This document shows, one piece after another, positions 5,638 to 60,223 of a DNA stretch of 64,000 bases (position 1 is the first letter of the stretch; each line of letters begins with the position of its first letter). A program made the position numbers and the translations under genes. Under the pieces are notes generated by a model that searched no databases, was not told the origin of the DNA, and saw only the letters and a list, made by a program, of their open reading frames with translations. The stretch spans positions 703 through 64,702 of the forward strand of contig VBEW01000078.1 of assembly GCA_005889225.1 (NCBI GenBank), given 5' to 3'. The stretch comes from Chloroflexota bacterium (GTDB lineage: Bacteria; Chloroflexota; Dormibacteria; CF-121).

Positions 5638-6114
5638 GTGGATCGTGCGAGTCAACTTATGAGAGACGCTATCAAGGACATACCCCTGTACGATCGGACG
5701 GCGCGGAAGGCGCACCAGTGGACGATGGTCGTGCTGGTCGCTGCTGGGCTCGTCATCCAGGGCGTCGCCGGTGGCCTGCTGATCGCGCTCGCCGGCCTCA
5801 TCATGCTGGTGGGCCGCTTCTGGTGGCCGGCCGACCTCGTCCGGCAGCTGGTCTGGCGGGCGCTCGAGCCGGCCGGCCTCCTCAAACGGGACGACGTTCA
5901 CGAGGACCACGAGACCCGGCGGGTGGCACGCGTGATGGGCGGCGCGATCTGGGTGATCGCAGCCGCGTTCATGCTCGCCGGCAACCCGGTGCTGGCGTGG
6001 GTGCTCAGCATCCCGATCGGGGTGATGGTCGCCCTCGACGCCAGCCTGGATTTTTGCGCCCTCTGCTTCCTGTTGGCGCAGCTGGACCAGCGCGGGCTCC
6101 TTCGGCGGGCTTAG
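5638..6114 (+). CDS. DUF4395 membrane protein
   Basis: A 158-aa protein with four hydrophobic segments. This family commonly pairs with thioredoxin-like genes, and one follows immediately here. Confidence 0.7.
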   Translation: MDRASQLMRDAIKDIPLYDRTARKAHQWTMVVLVAAGLVIQGVAGGLLIALAGLIMLVGRFWWPADLVRQLVWRALEPAGLLKRDDVHEDHETRRVARVMGGAIWVIAAAFMLAGNPVLAWVLSIPIGVMVALDASLDFCALCFLLAQLDQRGLLRRA

Positions 6115-6119
6115 CGTCG

Positions 6120-6554
6120 ATGGCCGGGCGCGCCCTGATCCTCGTCGCAGTGGTGGTCCTTGTCACGGTGACCGTGGTCGCCGTGCGGGCCTGGTCGAGG
6201 CGGCGCGTCGATGGCCTGGAGATCGGCGGCCGGGCACAGCTGTGGTCTGCGCTTGGGGAGGCGCCGGACGGAAGGCCATCCCTGGTCGTCTTCTCAACGC
6301 CAAGCTGCACGGCCTGCCGTACCGCGCAGTATCCCGCGGTTGAAGCGGTGGCCCGGCGGTTCGGCCAGGCGCTGCGCATCCTCATGGTTGACCTATCGAA
6401 GCGGCCGGCTGTCGGTCAGGCGTTCCGGGTGCTCACTGCGCCAACGACGGTGGTTCTGAGCGGCGACGGGCGGATCGCCAGCTTCAATCACGGGTTTGTG
6501 CCGGCCGAGCAGCTCGAGGCCCAGGTCGGCGCCGCGCGATCGTCGCCGCGGTAG
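6120..6554 (+). CDS. thioredoxin-family protein (membrane-anchored)
   Basis: The ATG at 6120 is in frame with the 5718 ORF. There is an N-terminal transmembrane segment and a CxxC motif (FSTPSCTACR). Confidence 0.7.
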   Translation: MAGRALILVAVVVLVTVTVVAVRAWSRRRVDGLEIGGRAQLWSALGEAPDGRPSLVVFSTPSCTACRTAQYPAVEAVARRFGQALRILMVDLSKRPAVGQAFRVLTAPTTVVLSGDGRIASFNHGFVPAEQLEAQVGAARSSPR

Positions 6555-6939
6555 CGGCTGCCGCGAGTTCAACCAGCTCGCGCGGGACCTGGGTGGGGCG
6601 GCCATCGCTGAGCCGGACCCAGACCCACTCGGTCAACACCTCAGCCAGGAGCTCGCCATCCGATATGCGCCGGATCGTGGTTCGCCGGACACCACGTGCA
6701 CCTCGTACCAGCTCCACCTTCACGGTCACCTCGATCTCATCGCCGTAGACCGCCGGCTGGTGGTAGGTGATTTCGGTGCGACGGATCACCCAGCCGCCCC
6801 CACGCTGCTCCGACCACTCCCGGCCGTAGCCGGCGGCCTCGGCATGGGCCGTGGCGATCTCCTCGGCCCAACTCAGGTAAACGGCGTTGTTGACGTGCCC
6901 TCGGCTGTCCAGCTCGTAGCCGCGCACCGGCCACCGCAT
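6484..6939 (-). CDS. acyl-CoA thioesterase (4HBT/YbgC-like hotdog)
   Basis: The start is set at MRWPVRGYELDSRGHVNNAVY. The 3' end overlaps the convergent thioredoxin gene by 71 bp. Confidence 0.7.
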   Translation of the reverse strand: MRWPVRGYELDSRGHVNNAVYLSWAEEIATAHAEAAGYGREWSEQRGGGWVIRRTEITYHQPAVYGDEIEVTVKVELVRGARGVRRTTIRRISDGELLAEVLTEWVWVRLSDGRPTQVPRELVELAAAATAATIARRRPGPRAARPAQTRD

Positions 6940-7037
6940 CGTGAACTCGAGCGGGTCGGCGCGTCGCGGATCGGGAGCCACACACATAGTTTCGCGCGGA
7001 GTAGCCTGAGCCTGAGTTCCGAAGGAGGTGCATCGAT

Positions 7038-7496
7038 TTGCAGGTCAAAGAGCTAGGGCATCTGGTGCTTTACGTGCGTAATCTCGAGCGCTCGCGCCAG
7101 TTCTATCGCGATGTGCTGGGTTGGAAGGAGATCACGGTCCCCGGTGAGGAGATCGGCTTTCCGGCCGCGGCCTTTTCGTCGGGACGCACGCACCACGAAC
7201 TCCTGCTGATCGCGGTCGGCGATGATGCCACCCCGATCCCGCGCGGTCGCCGGGTTGGCATGTATCACTTCGGACTCAAGATCGGGGAGACCGACGCCGA
7301 ACTCCGCGAGGCCCGCGACCAGCTGGTGGCGGCCGGCGCCCGTCTCGTCGGCACCGCCGATCACACCATTACCCATAGCCTCTACATCGAGGATCCCGAC
7401 GGCAACGAGATCGAGCTCTACATCGACGTCCAGCCGGCGATCTGGAAGGAGGATCCGTCCGCCATCTTCGCCCAACCCCGTCCGCTCCGACTCTAG
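7038..7496 (+). CDS. VOC-family protein (glyoxalase/extradiol dioxygenase-like)
   Basis: Reads LGHLVLYVRNLERSRQFYRDVLGW...HH...E and is 152 aa long. Confidence 0.75.
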   Translation: MQVKELGHLVLYVRNLERSRQFYRDVLGWKEITVPGEEIGFPAAAFSSGRTHHELLLIAVGDDATPIPRGRRVGMYHFGLKIGETDAELREARDQLVAAGARLVGTADHTITHSLYIEDPDGNEIELYIDVQPAIWKEDPSAIFAQPRPLRL

Positions 7497-7552
7497 CTCC
7501 AGCCTCGTATTTCCTGGGCGCAAGCAAGGGACGGCGCCCGCGTTCCACGAGT

Positions 7553-7819
7553 GTGAGCCCCTCCAGGCGCGCCGATCGGGTGGAATCCGTGTTGCGCGGG
7601 GTCGACGCGACGCTCGGTCGCGTGCTGGCCAAGGCTCGGACCCGCGGCGCCGGCGCCCTTCGCCAGCCGATCAAGGGGCTCCAGACGGGGCTCAAGAAGC
7701 TCAGTGCCGGACTGGAGAAGATGGAACACCAGACCACGACCGGCCCGGCCAAGCGGGCCGAGCGTCCGGCGGCCGCCCCCAAGGCCACCCGCAACCGCAA
7801 ACCGAAGAAAACCGCCTGA
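7553..7819 (+). CDS. hypothetical small basic protein
   Basis: An 88-aa ORF with a Lys/Arg-rich C-terminus and no recognisable domain. Confidence 0.3.
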   Translation: MSPSRRADRVESVLRGVDATLGRVLAKARTRGAGALRQPIKGLQTGLKKLSAGLEKMEHQTTTGPAKRAERPAAAPKATRNRKPKKTA

Positions 7820-7852: not shown

Positions 7853-8065
7853 CTAGGCCAGTTTGTGTTCCACGGCGAATCGGGTCGCCGCGCTTCGAGA
7901 TTTCAGGCCGAGCTTCGCGTAAATCGATCGCAAGTGGGCGTCCACCGTCCGGGTACTGACGCCGAGGCGTTCCGCGATTTGTCGATTCATCAGCCCGGCG
8001 GCGACCAGTGAGAGGACCTCGACCTCACGGGCGGTTAGGCCTTCGATCCGGACGGCCCTAGGCAC
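7853..8065 (-). CDS. LuxR-family HTH protein (stand-alone HTH)
   Basis: A 70-aa protein: LTAREVEVLSLVAAGLMNRQIAERLGVSTRTVDAHLRSIYAKLG. Confidence 0.7.
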   Translation of the reverse strand: MPRAVRIEGLTAREVEVLSLVAAGLMNRQIAERLGVSTRTVDAHLRSIYAKLGLKSRSAATRFAVEHKLA

Positions 8066-8134
8066 TGAGAACCGTTCGCGGTCGTCTAGTTGCCGGGGAC
8101 AGCGTCCGGTCGGCTAGAGTATGGGACAAGTTAG

Positions 8135-8152
8135 GCATTCAGCGATGATCAT
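8135..8152. promoter_or_regulatory. perfect inverted repeat ATGATCA-ttgc-TGATCAT (candidate operator)
   Basis: Read directly from the sequence, 22 bp upstream of the HTH-MEDS regulator start in a locally AT-richer stretch. Confidence 0.35.
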
Positions 8153-8173
8153 TGCTGATCATACCAATCAGCA

Positions 8174-8923
8174 GTGAGCGCAATGAGCGATAAATTATTT
8201 ACGACCAGGGAGACGTCAACGTTTCTGCGCGTAAGCGAGGCATCTGTTCGTCGGTGGGCTGACGCTGGGATTCTCCCGGCCAGCCGGGTGGGTCGCCGCC
8301 GCGCCCGTCGTTTTCGAGAAGCCGACCTCCTGCAGTTCATGCAATCCGGTCGGAGCGGACCCACGCCCGGTCCGGGAGCTGCACGCGCCATCGTCATTCA
8401 GGGGATGGCGGTGGCCCTCGGCAGCCACCTGGTCAGCTTCTATTCGAGCGACGCGGGCCGGCTCCGCGTGGCGGTTCCGTTCCTGCGGGACGGGCTGATG
8501 GCGGGCCAGGCATGCTTGATGTTCGTCACGGCACATCTGCGCGAGCTTTACCTGAAGGCGCTCAGCGGCGAGCGAGTTGGTGTCGACGCCGCGATGAGCA
8601 CGGGCTTGCTCACGTTCATGTCGACCCGCCAGGAGTCAGTTGCGGGCTGGATCGCGGATTTCGAGCGTCACGTGGAAGCAGCTCTGCGAGATCATCCCGG
8701 ACCGGTCCGCTTTCTGGGGGAGACCGTGACTGCCGTCTCGAGCCTGCAGTCCGTCAAGGAGTTATTGACCCTCGAGGAAGAGCTGGCGCCGGTCGTCCGG
8801 CGGTTGCCCGTCGTGATGCTCTGTCCATACGACGTGCGCACCTTCGACGGGTTCACGATCGTCGAGGCGCTCAAGCTGCACTTCGATACCTATAGCTACC
8901 AGCTTGCCTATTTCTTGAGCTGA
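8174..8923 (+). CDS. HTH (MerR/excisionase-type) + MEDS-domain regulator
   Basis: The N-terminus (LFTTRETSTFLRVSEASVRRWADAGILPA) is an HTH_17-like helix-turn-helix. The remainder (HLVSFYSSDAGRLRVAVPFLRDGLMAGQACLMFV...) matches the MEDS sensory domain described for DcmR. Confidence 0.65.
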   Translation: MSAMSDKLFTTRETSTFLRVSEASVRRWADAGILPASRVGRRRARRFREADLLQFMQSGRSGPTPGPGAARAIVIQGMAVALGSHLVSFYSSDAGRLRVAVPFLRDGLMAGQACLMFVTAHLRELYLKALSGERVGVDAAMSTGLLTFMSTRQESVAGWIADFERHVEAALRDHPGPVRFLGETVTAVSSLQSVKELLTLEEELAPVVRRLPVVMLCPYDVRTFDGFTIVEALKLHFDTYSYQLAYFLS

Positions 8924-8965
8924 CCCGAGCGGCTAGACTGAAGTCGAGAGGGGAAATAGAGTCCG

Positions 8966-9382
8966 ATGCCTCGCCGGCTACTTCGCGAGCCGCACGTCCT
9001 GGCCCACGAGCTCCGCACGCCGCTGGCCGTGCTGGCCGGCTGGTACTCACTCGTTCGGGATGCTGACATTTCTCCACAACGCACACCCGTGGAGTGGGCG
9101 CGAGCGATGGCCGCCTGCCAGGAGGCGGTGGATCGTCTCAACCTCGTCATCAGCCAGGCATGTAACGAAGCCGATTCCAGCAACCGCCTGCGGGGGCCGG
9201 CGTACGAGCAGTTCAATCAGTTGCTCGAGCGGACCGAGGCGGCGATCAGTCAGTCACGTGAGGTGCTGGTACAGCTTCAACTGCGCCGCCAGGACGCCAC
9301 TGACACAGCTCCGAAGAGGGTCATCCGGGGCGGCCGCGTGAGGCAACATCCGGCCGTCAGCCAGGCGGTCACTCCGCCCTAG
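8966..9382 (+). CDS. HisKA/DHp-only protein (phospho-acceptor H-box, no ATPase domain)
   Basis: LAHELRTPLAVLAGW is a canonical H-box. The remaining 100 aa are helical, with no G1/G2 boxes, and the ORF ends in an overlap with the convergent kinase gene. Confidence 0.5.
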   Translation: MPRRLLREPHVLAHELRTPLAVLAGWYSLVRDADISPQRTPVEWARAMAACQEAVDRLNLVISQACNEADSSNRLRGPAYEQFNQLLERTEAAISQSREVLVQLQLRRQDATDTAPKRVIRGGRVRQHPAVSQAVTPP

Positions 9383-11087
9383 CGGGGGCCGTCGCCCGGA
9401 CCGGTCCTTCGGTTGGCTCACGAACCCCCGAGGACCTCCGATCGGCGGCGACCCGGGTTTCGGGCTGAGCCAGCGGAAGGGAGAGAGCGAAGACTGTCCC
9501 GGCGCCCGGCTCGCTCCGTTCGATCACGATGCGGCCCAGGTGCCGTTCGGCGAGCTGACGGCTGATGTACAGGCCCAGGCCCGTGCCCGGCACATTGCTG
9601 AAGCTCGGATCGTGGACTCGGTGGAATCGCTCGAACACGAGCCCTCGCTCGGTCTCGGGAATCCCCACTCCGTTGTCGGCAACGCGCACGATGCCGTGGG
9701 TGTCTTCGGTCGACACGGCGATCGACAGTCGTGGCGGTCGCACCGTGTAGGTCAGCCCATTGTTGATCAAGTTGTCCATGACCCGACCGAGCTGGACAGC
9801 GTCGGCTTTGACGGGGACGGGCTCGGCGCTCAGGCCGGTCGCGATCTCCGCGTCCAGGAGGTCAGCACGCGCGCGGGCGCGTTCGACCGCTTGCCGGACT
9901 ACGTCGCGTAGGTCGATCTGGGTCTCGGGAGGTCTCGATGCGGAGCCATCGAGGCGGGAAGCCTCGAGGAGCTGGTCGACCATGTTCTTCAGCTCCCGGG
10001 TCTTGGCTGTCAGGATTTCGACCGATCGGCGCCAGGCCGCGGGATCATCTCCGAAAGAGCCGTCGGCGAGCATCGATAGGTACCCATTCAGTACCGAAAT
10101 AGGCGTGCGCAGTTCGTGAGCCGCGAGGTTGAGGAAGGCACTCTTGGCCTGATTCGCGAGCTGCTCGGCGGCGTAAAGGCGGGACAGTTCCTCCTTTCGT
10201 TCGCGGGTCTCAACAAGGGCGGCCAGCACGAAGGATGCCAGCGCCAGACTGACGTTGAAAGCCTGGAGTGCGACCATCTTTTCGAAGAGGTCCTCTGTGG
10301 CGAATGGGCCGGTTCCGTGCACGGCGGACCAGGTCGCGACCGTCGACGCAATCAGCGCGGCGGGCGCCGCTCCGCGCTGGCGGAAGCGCCAGGCCGTGAC
10401 CATGATGAGTGGCAGCACCAGGTACTCGACCCGCAGACCATTCTGGAAAAGCAGATAGGTCACGATCGCAGTTCCGGCCAGCAGGGCGCCGAGTTCCCCC
10501 GCACGCCACCAGTTGAGCTGGGGCCAGGCCGATCCTGGCAACAAGCTCAAGAGGAAGGGCGCCACCAGCAGCACCCCCATCGCGTCGCCCGCCCACCAGA
10601 CGGCCCAGGTCGCCCAGAAGCCGCTGCCCGGCACGGTGCCGGATAGCAGGAGGACCAGGCTGCCTACGGTGGCGCTGACCGCCATGCCCGTGAGCGCCGC
10701 GAGTGTGATGGCGATGGCGTCGAACAGTCGGTCCATCGCAAGGTGGAAGTCGAGCCGGCGGAGGAGCTCCGCCGACAGCAGAGGGGCGAGCGTATTCCCG
10801 GCGGCGATCACCGCCGCGCCGAGTACGGAAGGGCCAATCGGGAGGTTGACCGCAAAGGCCGCCAGCGCGATGGCGGCCGTAGCCCGCCGCCCGACGAGCA
10901 GAATTGCCACCACAGCAATGCCGGTCGGGGGCCAGATCGGGGTGACCTGACCGTGCACCAGCGCCAGGTTCAGGCTGAGTTTGGCCGCCAGCCAGTAGGC
11001 CGCGGCCACCAGCGCCAGCCGGAAGAACTCCTTGCCTGTCAGACGAAGGGTACTGAAGCGGGTCACACCGCTGAGTTCGGGTACCAA
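9369..11087 (-). CDS. sensor histidine kinase with MASE1 membrane domain
   Basis: A 572-aa ORF with about eight N-terminal transmembrane helices (MASE1-like), then HisKA (AAHELRTPISVLNGY) and HATPase_c (DNGVGIP...GTGLGLYISRQL). Confidence 0.85.
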   Translation of the reverse strand: MVPELSGVTRFSTLRLTGKEFFRLALVAAAYWLAAKLSLNLALVHGQVTPIWPPTGIAVVAILLVGRRATAAIALAAFAVNLPIGPSVLGAAVIAAGNTLAPLLSAELLRRLDFHLAMDRLFDAIAITLAALTGMAVSATVGSLVLLLSGTVPGSGFWATWAVWWAGDAMGVLLVAPFLLSLLPGSAWPQLNWWRAGELGALLAGTAIVTYLLFQNGLRVEYLVLPLIMVTAWRFRQRGAAPAALIASTVATWSAVHGTGPFATEDLFEKMVALQAFNVSLALASFVLAALVETRERKEELSRLYAAEQLANQAKSAFLNLAAHELRTPISVLNGYLSMLADGSFGDDPAAWRRSVEILTAKTRELKNMVDQLLEASRLDGSASRPPETQIDLRDVVRQAVERARARADLLDAEIATGLSAEPVPVKADAVQLGRVMDNLINNGLTYTVRPPRLSIAVSTEDTHGIVRVADNGVGIPETERGLVFERFHRVHDPSFSNVPGTGLGLYISRQLAERHLGRIVIERSEPGAGTVFALSLPLAQPETRVAADRRSSGVREPTEGPVRATAPARAE

Positions 11088-11124: not shown

Positions 11125-11529
11125 TCAAGGCAATTCCGTGTCGGCTGCTTGCTGCAACCTGGTAGCGGGCACCCCATCCGGCGATGAAATCCTGACGACG
11201 TAGTCGGACGCGCTCAAATTCGCGCCCTGGTTTCTGAGCTCCTGACTGCGCGAAGCGGCCAGGATGACGGCCGGCAGGTTGGGCCGGCGGGCTGCGCGAC
11301 GAAGATCCTCGAGGATGCCGAGCCGGTCAGGTCTTCCCGCCGGTAACTCCAGGAAAATGATGTCGGGACGTCGGGCGCGGGTTTCCGCCACCGCATTGTC
11401 GAGATCGACCACCCGGACCCAGTAACCGTCGAGTTCAAGCTTTAGCCGGTACATCTCCGCAAGTGCGTCATCCTCGGCGATGTAAAGGACGTCGAGGGTC
11501 TCAACATCCGTCTCGGGCACCACGACCAT
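11125..11529 (-). CDS. single-domain response-regulator receiver (atypical: Glu at the phospho-acceptor position)
   Basis: The CheY-like fold carries EDD acidic residues, but the phospho-acceptor position reads IIFLELP (Glu instead of Asp) and the conserved Lys position reads YVVR (Arg). It lies immediately upstream of the MASE1 kinase. Confidence 0.65.
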   Translation of the reverse strand: MVVVPETDVETLDVLYIAEDDALAEMYRLKLELDGYWVRVVDLDNAVAETRARRPDIIFLELPAGRPDRLGILEDLRRAARRPNLPAVILAASRSQELRNQGANLSASDYVVRISSPDGVPATRLQQAADTELP

Positions 11530-59604: not shown

Positions 59605-59785
59605 TGGCGTTCTCTCCTAGGTGCTTGTGGGGGATTCCGACAGCTTGGCAGGTGCCCCCCTGTCCCACGGAAGTGCCGAAGGGACCTTGAAGGTTAGGCC
59701 CTAAATCCGCCGTTGGGCACTAGGAAGCACGCTGGCCTTCATGGCAAGGTCTGAGCAGTCGAATCTGACGATAAGGGAGGTAGTA

Positions 59786-60223
59786 ATGAAAACGAGGGCC
59801 GCGACTCCGTTGCGACGACGCAGCCGGACGGCAGCATTTCCATCAGAGGAGGATCTGATCTCGGTACTTTTCATCGAGGATGACGCGCATCTTGCTGAGA
59901 TGTATCGACTCAAGCTCGAGACGGACGGTTACCAGGTGACGATCGCCGAGTCCGAGGAAAGCGTCAAGCAGGTGCTTCCCGACCTGATCTATCTCGACAT
60001 CCGAGCTCCGCATCGCGACCGGGTCCGCGTTCTGCGACGGCTCCGAGCTCACGACGCCACAAAGCCGATTCCCGTTGTCATCTTGTCGGACTACCCTGAG
60101 CAAGAACTCATCGACGCCGGTGCCGACCTCGGTGTGGGTGAATACGTCGTCAGATCCGCTGGCCCAACGAGCCTTAGTCAAGGGATCGAGGAATGGGGCA
60201 CACAGCGCACGGAAGTCGACTGA
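59786..60223 (+). CDS. single-domain response-regulator receiver (divergent; paralogue of 11125..11529)
   Basis: ATG behind a GGGAGG RBS. It shares the unusual AEMYRLKLExDGY motif with the other receiver. Asp is present (LIYLDIRAP), but the conserved Lys position is Arg (YVVRSAGP). Confidence 0.6.
   Translation: MKTRAATPLRRRSRTAAFPSEEDLISVLFIEDDAHLAEMYRLKLETDGYQVTIAESEESVKQVLPDLIYLDIRAPHRDRVRVLRRLRAHDATKPIPVVILSDYPEQELIDAGADLGVGEYVVRSAGPTSLSQGIEEWGTQRTEVD

Follow-up and report, generated by a model that had tools for sequence, protein, structure and literature searches.

We examined a stretch of 64,000 nucleotides from the Chloroflexota bacterium contig VBEW01000078.1 (hereafter, the window), and within it a pair of adjacent genes, one for a regulator combining a helix-turn-helix (HTH) with a MEDS domain and the other for a stand-alone dimerisation and histidine phosphotransfer (DHp) domain of the HisKA family. 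Two signalling genes, each conserved in its own right, make up the locus and lie side by side in one Dormibacterota-like lineage (NCBI 'Chloroflexi bacterium'). The DNA of the window is 64% GC, and many long spurious open reading frames (ORFs) are present in its ORF listing. The features of the locus are given below, with protein lengths in amino acids (aa) and distances in nucleotides (nt).

7853..8065, minus strand: GerE-type HTH gene, 70 aa, matching GerE in Pfam with 74.7 bits, without a receiver domain and divergent from the HTH-MEDS gene
8115..8120, plus strand: TAGAGT, a putative -10-like hexamer (TANNNT) upstream of the HTH-MEDS gene, as read from the sequence
8145..8162, no strand: perfect inverted repeat ATGATCA-ttgc-TGATCAT, the candidate operator of a first-pass annotation of this DNA, with its coordinates corrected
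8153..8173: second, overlapping inverted repeat TGCTGAT-N7-ATCAGCA, from a sequence scan
8159..8170, plus strand: conserved element TCATAnCA(G/A)TCA, overlapping the right arm of the 8145..8162 repeat
8183..8923, plus strand: HTH-MEDS regulator gene (ORF readable from GTG 8174), 246 aa, Pfam HTH_17 and MEDS
8934..8939, plus strand: TAGACT, a -10-like hexamer 27 nt before the DHp start codon, within the 42-nt spacer
8966..9382, plus strand: stand-alone HisKA/DHp gene, 138 aa, with HisKA as its sole Pfam domain
9369..11087, minus strand: MASE1-HisKA-HATPase_c sensor kinase gene (Pfam), 572 aa, convergent on the DHp gene
11125..11529, minus strand: gene for a receiver-like single-domain protein, 134 aa, upstream of the MASE1 kinase gene, with Response_reg below its cut-off

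The HTH-MEDS and DHp genes lie on the same strand with a spacer of 42 nt between positions 8923 and 8966. At its other end the DHp ORF terminates (9382) 14 nt inside the convergent MASE1 kinase ORF, the 3' ends of the two genes overlapping.

The DHp-only ORF is a real, conserved HisKA gene that lacks a catalytic ATP-binding (CA) domain and is under purifying selection. The Pfam scan of its product returned HisKA (PF00512) only, with 29.7 bits against a gathering cut-off of 26.9, over residues 11–65. No match to HATPase_c was obtained even at E ≤ 1, and at the same threshold there were none to Hpt (PF01627) or to families of the Spo0B/ChpT/Spo0E type. In NCBIfam, PhoR-like kinases were matched only in part, over their DHp segments. 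The protein of the window is deposited as TMF60149.1 with the annotation 'hypothetical protein'. Among 5.8 billion proteins searched, 78 homologues were found, every one between 82 and 158 aa and most carrying a precomputed PF00512 annotation; their sources are soil metagenomes and metagenome-assembled genomes labelled Chloroflexi or Candidatus Dormibacteraeota.

Throughout the family the N-terminus and the H-box are invariant, with the sequence MPRRLLREPHxLAHELRTPL and the same start methionine. In an alignment of 32 members, reaching down to 46% identity, 21 columns are invariant, among them L5, L6, E8, P9, H10, L12, A13, H14, E15, L16, R17, T18, P19, L20, G25, W26, D34 and W44. The hallmark of an H-box, an acceptor histidine followed by E/D-x-x-T/N, is thereby present as H14, E15 and T18 in all 32 sequences. 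C51 and C66 are at least 90% conserved in the same alignment; both are located on helix 2, where SrrB has hydrophobic core residues (Val and Leu). The invariant H10 is positioned one turn ahead of H14. The ratio of nonsynonymous to synonymous substitution rates (dN/dS) is 0.17–0.40 against close and distant relatives, and among close relatives it is 0.17–0.27 overall, 0.07–0.22 in the core (residues 1–114) and 0.38–1.36 in the C-terminal tail.

The AlphaFold2 model of the DHp-only protein, calculated with the family alignment, comprises helices at residues 9–31, 41–75 and 79–113 and a disordered tail (115–138), with predicted local distance difference test (pLDDT) scores above 90 across residues 11–60. 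The first two helices form the antiparallel hairpin expected of a DHp domain, and by analogy with other DHp domains the protein would dimerise. The top Foldseek match in the PDB is the DHp domain of SrrB from a DHp-CA structure (6paj_B), with a root-mean-square deviation of 1.4 Å over 63 columns and a probability of 1.00; the E-value is only 0.1, as is expected for a helical hairpin. HK853 and VC2136 are the runners-up, and among solved structures SrrB gives the best match by sequence as well. Since the chain is taken up by three helices and a disordered tail, there is no room in it for N, G1, F or G2 boxes. The first-pass annotation had described 8966..9382 as a 138-aa protein with HisKA as its sole feature and no ATPase, and both the Pfam scan and the three-helix model bear this out.

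A HMMER profile search of 1.84 billion representative proteins returned nine proteins below 1e-10, all of them 127 aa or shorter. The scores fall into two groups, with the DHp-only family at 59–189 bits and generic kinases from 41.5 bits downward. No close relative in those 1.84 billion representatives has a fused MEDS or CA domain or is full-length. The family is thus tight and lineage-restricted, and the lack of fused or full-length close relatives indicates that the protein is not a truncated or decayed kinase. The contrary explanation, that the ORF is the leftover DHp domain of a broken MEDS-kinase or truncated kinase, or a spurious ORF in GC-rich DNA, would draw on the plentiful long spurious ORFs of 64% GC DNA and on the common reading frame (frame 2) of the MEDS gene, from 8174, and the DHp ORF, from 8966. 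Against it stand three in-frame stops between the two ORFs, a frame match that is not conserved (spacers of 40, 41 or 42 nt), the 78 homologues with an invariant N-terminus and the same methionine, the core dN/dS of 0.07–0.22, and the absence of long relatives among the 1.84 billion proteins. We consider it extremely improbable; the shared frame in the window is a coincidence. A MEDS-DHp fusion or read-through product was ruled out by the same stops and the non-conserved frame relation. The first-pass annotation had allowed that the ORF might prove to have neither a HisKA match nor homologues, and the HisKA score and the 78 homologues dispose of that prospect; it had also argued against read-through from the position of the frame end within the convergent kinase gene, and the end at 9382 is indeed 14 nt inside 9369..11087. 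The DHp-only protein is neither a complete kinase nor a phosphotransferase of the HPt or Spo0B/ChpT kind. The description that suits it best is that of a HisKA stalk which occurs free-standing in nature and is specific to one lineage, with one additional helix, an N-terminal motif that does not vary, and a pair of conserved cysteines in the core.

Neighbourhoods of both genes were gathered by exact-protein look-ups and by searching metagenome contigs with a custom degenerate DNA pattern, the latter yielding 27 true DHp loci (loci cited individually carry L numbers). The pattern superseded a scan of genome contigs with the family alignment, which was swamped by the generic LAHELRTPL pattern and recovered only one true relative (L008). 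The gene order of the window, namely GerE-70 on the opposite strand, HTH-MEDS, DHp, and the MASE1 kinase on the opposite strand, is shared by L008, L017 and L018 and by the majority of the 27 metagenome loci. In loci of this type the DHp proteins are 77–93% identical and the MEDS-DHp spacer is 40–42 nt where measurable. The same order recurs in L015 and L016, in which the DHp proteins are 63–65% and the HTH-MEDS proteins 51–55% identical; in L015 the MEDS and DHp genes are kept apart by an additional, oppositely oriented GerE gene together with a gap of 398 nt. Overall, adjacency of a MEDS gene followed by a DHp gene is limited to one clade of about 30 loci. Flanking genes are syntenic in this clade too (GCV_T, DUF4395, thioredoxin-like, 4HBT thioesterase, GerE and Rce1-like). 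In L027 and L045 the DHp gene is parted from the MASE1 kinase gene by a 3.5-kb insertion, and the presence of this insertion in close relatives marks the DHp-kinase junction as a site of rearrangement. The insertion encodes a 516-aa polytopic membrane protein (L027, 6720..8270, minus strand) along with other ORFs.

DHp homologues at approximately 55–66% identity occur in six further contexts, all of which are without a MEDS gene.

L001: neighbours SBP_bac_11 and sigma-70
L002 to L004: neighbours MscL and HSP20
L005 to L007: neighbours LCAT and a convergent, overlapping GAF-HisKA-HATPase kinase
L019: neighbour a cold-shock protein
L033: between two membrane proteins
L054: neighbours SBP56 and GATase

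An apparent continuation of the DHp into a kinase CA domain in L033 was a spurious, weak alignment of 25% identity, the actual arrangement being a 122-aa DHp ORF followed by a membrane protein. Genes associated with redox or stress often lie near members of the family: MsrA and YceI in L033; MsrB, HSP20 and MscL in L002; AhpC/Redoxin in L005; the cold-shock protein in L019; and the thioredoxin-like and DUF4395 genes in the clade of the window.

One of the hexamers TAGACT, TAAACT, TAGAGT or TACAGT precedes the DHp start by 25–32 nt in the MEDS-linked loci as well as in L019 and L002, that is, in two of the five MEDS-free contexts printed; in L005, L033 and L001 no TANNNT was found at that place. 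The -10-like hexamers of the window are preceded by GGC, giving GGCTAGACT before the DHp gene and GGCTAGAGT before the HTH-MEDS gene. Consensus scans for sigma-70 promoters and intrinsic terminators found nothing between 7700 and 9700. The recurrent hexamer suggests that the DHp gene brings its own promoter, and its occurrence together with the seven genomic contexts argues that the DHp gene is a self-contained unit.

These observations bear directly on the proposal of the first-pass annotation that the two genes constitute a split MEDS signalling module. In such an arrangement the MEDS protein and the free DHp would associate non-covalently into a counterpart of the MEDS-HisKA part of fused kinases, with ligand sensing by MEDS gating the DHp, or the DHp gating DNA binding. 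Wherever measured in the clade (77–96% identity), the two genes share a strand and are 40–42 nt apart; the adjacency is kept at 51–65% identity in L015 and L016, and it outlasts the insertions that separate the DHp gene from the kinase gene in L027 and L045. MEDS domains are moreover found on archaeal histidine kinases (10.1101/2024.10.04.616672), EtnR2, which consists of MEDS alone, is needed alongside EtnR1, a partner from a separate gene (bioRxiv 10.1101/2024.02.19.581074; PMC11507031), and the KaiC-like fold of MEDS recalls the binding of the kinase SasA by the KaiC CI domain (PDB code 6x61, among the Foldseek matches of the regulator). The reverse side is that the DHp family occurs without MEDS in six of its seven contexts, that HTH-MEDS occurs without a DHp gene in L020 to L026, and that no MEDS-DHp fusion was found among close relatives of either family. 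An opposite-strand gene is accommodated between the pair in L015, and the -10-like hexamer in the spacer, with similar ones in two MEDS-free contexts, suggests a separate promoter. As the whole neighbourhood is syntenic within the clade, the adjacency may simply reflect shared ancestry. We regard a non-covalent module of this kind as unlikely, and the link between the two genes in the clade is more likely to be positional or transcriptional than that of an obligate non-covalent sensor-transmitter pair. What survives of the proposal is a real DHp-only gene adjacent to the MEDS gene in one clade; an obligate pair is an overstatement, each gene being found without the other. The survey for the gene pair that the same annotation had called for has the corresponding outcome, with the pair present in about 30 loci of one clade and missing from the six other DHp contexts.

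The HTH-MEDS regulator was assigned by Pfam as the first-pass annotation had read it, with HTH_17 at 49.7 bits (residues 8–59) and MEDS (PF14417) at 96.4 bits (residues 85–236, numbered from the ORF that begins at 8174). Its start is better placed at the conserved ATG 8183, which gives a protein of 246 aa; the homologues all begin with ATGAGCG and are 244–250 aa long. More than 200 homologues were found, and all of the more than 120 matches listed have HTH_17 and MEDS at approximately 247 aa. None of these listed relatives is fused to a kinase, so that the possibility of a decayed version of a complete MEDS-kinase, raised in the first-pass annotation, finds no counterpart among them. Some homologues are named 'transcriptional repressor of dcmA and dcmR' by JGI. 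The RsbA-family anti-sigma factor model (NF041045; MEDS and GHKL kinase) gave 56.7 bits against a 210-bit cut-off, over profile positions 3–145 of 303, and the regulator does not belong to that family.

The AlphaFold2 model of the HTH-MEDS protein has a mean pLDDT of 87. Its MEDS part is assigned by Foldseek (E about 1e-5, probability 1.00) to the RecA-like fold class of FlaH, KaiC and Rad51, and there is no GK[ST] Walker A motif in the sequence, which makes it an inactive version of the RecA/KaiC-like fold. The placement of MEDS in a P-loop-less KaiC/RecA-like class bears on how DcmR-type sensors might work. DcmR itself is an HTH-plus-MEDS protein acting as a stand-alone repressor (bioRxiv 10.1101/2024.02.19.581074; PMC11507031). 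HTH plus MEDS being DcmR's own architecture, the regulator is not a kinase sensor deprived of its kinase; from its sequence it is classed as an ordinary member of the DcmR-type HTH-MEDS one-component class.

HTH-MEDS genes without a DHp neighbour were found in three settings: before OsmC (L020 to L023), before an unrelated membrane protein (L024 and L025), and among HisKA_3 systems (L026). The 152-aa gene that follows HTH-MEDS in L024 and L025 was entertained as a diverged DHp, and its translation proved to be that unrelated membrane protein. Near the HTH-MEDS gene of L026, positions 6280..7215 encode a 311-aa PAS and HisKA_3 protein with no HATPase_c on record, possibly a kinase-like protein without a CA domain, clustered with several receivers and a REC-HisKA_3-HATPase_c protein. 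The commonest neighbour of HTH-MEDS is the 70-aa GerE-type gene, absent in L020 to L023. The divergent GerE/HTH-MEDS pair is present in L015 (two copies), L016, L017 and L018, L024, L026 (two copies) and about 20 metagenome loci; in L015 and L026 the two GerE-type copies flank the MEDS gene. Against the PedR model the 70-aa protein scores 53 bits, under the 120-bit cut-off.

The intergenic region between the divergent genes (8066..8182) carries the stretches ATGATCA/TGATCAT and TCATACCAATCA. The perfect inverted repeat ATGATCAttgcTGATCAT had been placed at 8135..8152, 22 bp upstream of the regulator, and proposed as an auto-operator. The repeat exists, at 8145..8162; the distance from its end is 11 nt to GTG 8174 and 20 nt to ATG 8183. 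Because TGATCA is self-complementary, the site can also be read as a direct TGATCAT repeat with a 10-bp period. The window contains 75 perfect inverted repeats with 7-bp arms and 0–8 nt spacers, against a shuffle mean of 59, and the repeat is statistically ordinary. Among the upstream regions compared, only those of the window and L048 have the perfect form; L017 retains arms of 6 bp, the L018 copy is broken, and L015, L016, L020, L022, L024 and L026 lack the repeat. With conservation as an inverted repeat confined to near relatives, the auto-operator assignment is not upheld. GATC occurs 532 times in the whole window, where about 210 occurrences are expected from base composition, an excess for which codon usage or a methylation-related bias may be responsible.

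Better conserved than the inverted repeat is the element TCATAnCA(G/A)TCA (8159..8170), in which 8 of 12 columns are invariant in all nine aligned upstream regions, 13–24 nt before ATG 8183. The nine regions cover about 50% protein identity and were taken from three genomic contexts, some of them lacking GerE or DHp. We consider the element a candidate operator half-site or promoter element. Related loci also carry TAGAGT, TAAAAT or TAGAAT at a place similar to 8115..8120. No Rfam match was found around the inverted repeat at E ≤ 1, and an RNA element at the second repeat (8153..8173) was rejected, the z-score of the hairpin (-1.74) being non-significant and 14 of 200 shuffled sequences reaching an equally good fold. 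The regulator probably controls its own promoter region, common to the divergent GerE-type gene.

The MASE1 kinase is the sole HisKA-type kinase, and its CA domain the sole one, in the 64-kb window by tblastn, and a tblastn search of the window with the CA domain found no CA-only gene. The locus is therefore not a split kinase of the Mycobacterium tuberculosis type, in which a DHp-only gene would be encoded beside a CA-only gene and a response regulator. The DHp-only gene was considered as a recent duplicate of the MASE1 kinase DHp and rejected, the identity being just 31%. A comparison of specificity residues at His+7, +11 and +12 (A/G/W, and S/G/Y in the kinase) was uninformative, G-Y/F/W being common in PhoR-like kinases. 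The DHp-only gene is arranged tail-to-tail with a HisKA kinase in two unrelated contexts, with the MASE1 kinase in the window and with a GAF kinase in L005 and L006, the kinase cores of which are 40% identical. In L005 (DHp at 6001..6360; GAF-HisKA-HATPase_c kinase at 6265..7575) and L006 the convergent genes overlap by approximately 95 nt. This repeated convergence mildly favours a link to kinases. Five of the seven DHp contexts have no kinase nearby.

Two explanations build on such a link. In the first, a complete kinase (MASE1, or the GAF kinase in L005) would use its CA domain to phosphorylate His14 in trans, and the phosphate would then pass to a response regulator, the DHp-only protein serving as a branch or relay. 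The full H-box with its invariant His14 and the tail-to-tail kinases in two unrelated contexts are consistent with this, as is the reported phosphorylation of EnvZ domain A by domain B, and the HK1/HK2-TcrA system of M. tuberculosis, listed in PMC9321153, provides a precedent. On the other hand, the window has no CA-only gene, and no response regulator that carries an output domain lies next to the DHp gene; the kinase is no longer adjacent in L027 and L045, five of seven contexts have no kinase close by, and the complete kinase's own DHp would compete with the free one. A relay of this sort seems rather unlikely, if still worth some weight. In the second explanation, suggested by the dimerising nature of DHp domains, the free DHp would heterodimerise with the DHp of the full-length kinase and block autophosphorylation. 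The convergent arrangement in two contexts and the likeness of the H-box regions would fit a dominant-negative partner. DHp dimerisation is normally paralogue-specific, and the identity to the kinase DHp is just 31%, with the family far removed from kinases in the profile search (at most 41.5 bits for the latter, 59–189 for the former); most contexts are without a kinase, and invariance of His, Glu and Thr would be unnecessary in a pure blocker. We judge dominant-negative action to be quite improbable.

The product of 11125..11529 scores 26.2 bits with Response_reg in Pfam, under the cut-off of 30.2. Six orthologues (window, L008, L018, L027, L045 and L048) were aligned with paralogues and canonical receivers. 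All six have Glu in place of the phospho-acceptor Asp (FLELPAG, where canonical receivers have L(D)V/I) and Arg in place of the conserved Lys. By its sequence the protein looks like a member of a pseudo-receiver family with the motif MYRLKLExDGY. Paralogues at window 59741..60223 and L001 2808..3335 keep the Asp and also have Arg for Lys; an Asp-retaining member thus lies within the L001 context, which is otherwise unrelated, at a distance of 2.7 kb from the DHp gene.

What the DHp-only protein might do is constrained by what it retains and what it lacks. The complete HisKA H-box is retained, including the acceptor His14 and the Glu15/Thr18 pair, and Thr or Asn at position +4 is the residue that HisKA kinases need for phosphatase activity (PMC3510030). 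Lacking a CA/ATPase domain, the protein cannot autophosphorylate, and the strict invariance of the whole H-box argues for chemistry on or next to the histidine while bound to a receiver or CA domain, rather than passive dimerisation. The reading that we tentatively prefer, as a possibility somewhat short of an even chance, is that the protein is an auxiliary receiver phosphatase or a phosphoryl sink or acceptor. It would dock on a receiver domain via the usual surface of DHp helix alpha-1, and the phosphate would there be removed by reverse transfer to His14 or by Thr18-assisted hydrolysis, so that a two-component pathway would be damped or re-routed. The pathway of the convergent MASE1 kinase would be the obvious local candidate target.

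Several points weigh against this assignment. The invariant histidine suits a role in phosphotransfer at least as well as one as a pure phosphatase. No receiver partner for the DHp-only protein was identified, and the receiver-like protein of the kinase operon, with Glu for the acceptor Asp, is for that reason not a conventional substrate. The DHp of the MASE1 kinase is only 31% identical to the DHp-only protein over 67 aa. Within the clade, moreover, MEDS-DHp adjacency is steadier than DHp-kinase adjacency, being kept wherever both genes are on a contig (about 30 loci), and since the kinase junction is broken in some of these loci, a link to MEDS is favoured over a link to the kinase there.

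A redox or metal switch in the DHp-only protein through C51 and C66 (or H10) is conceivable. A bolder extension, in which the free HisKA stalk represents a new class of two-component accessory protein, with phosphotransfer or phosphatase activity made redox-dependent by C51 and C66 and, in this clade, physically controlled by the KaiC-fold MEDS domain, appears very doubtful; if true, it would tie a one-component sensor straight into a two-component pathway, loosely resembling KaiC-SasA. The usual description of a histidine kinase is DHp plus CA, and to our knowledge natural DHp-alone proteins that are under purifying selection and have a perfect H-box are essentially uncharacterised. Should the family prove to be a free phosphatase, a phosphoryl sink or a relay phosphorylated in trans, it would offer a simple and portable means to wire or damp two-component pathways, and a minimal natural system for the study of DHp-receiver recognition without a CA domain.

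Among known systems, the regulator is most like DcmR of Methylobacterium sp. strain DM4, which has an N-terminal HTH followed by one MEDS domain in approximately 250 aa and no other domain; H035DRAFT_2935 of Methylohalobius crimeensis is another regulator of this type. The likeness is one of domain order. The neighbours in the window are not genes of dichloromethane or alkene catabolism, the recurrent neighbour being instead the 70-aa GerE-type HTH protein. EtnR2 and EtnR1 of Mycobacterium NBB4 offer a precedent for a MEDS protein that needs a separately encoded partner. EtnR2 has no HTH, whereas the MEDS protein of the window has its own, and the partner EtnR1 is an activator of the GAF/PucR type rather than a DHp.

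For the DHp-only protein, one comparison is with HK1 (Rv0600c) and HK2 (Rv0601c) of M. tuberculosis, which are respectively the CA part and the H-box part of a kinase with the partner TcrA. Here, too, the histidine-bearing part of a kinase is encoded as a protein of its own. In M. tuberculosis a CA-only gene and a response regulator gene are adjacent to it, whereas the window has a complete kinase as the neighbour, encoded on the opposite strand.

Spo0B, ChpT and proteins of the Spo0E type are small or built around a helical-hairpin core, and act on receiver domains without ATP; they are functional analogues of the role proposed for the DHp-only protein. Spo0B and ChpT differ from it in keeping a CA-like alpha/beta domain, which the DHp-only model does not have, and in being without the HisKA H-box. 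Spo0E proteins are without the histidine and use an SQELD motif.

The closest structural parallels are SrrB (6PAJ), HK853 and domain A of EnvZ, which share with the DHp-only protein the HELRTPL H-box, the Glu at +1, the Thr at +4 and the helical hairpin. The isolated DHp of EnvZ reportedly has phosphatase activity, and EnvZ domain A is said to be phosphorylated in trans by domain B. In comparison to these kinases, the protein of the window is free-standing, without sensor, linker or CA domain, and is elaborated with the MPRRLLREPH motif, a third helix (residues 79–113) and two near-invariant cysteines.

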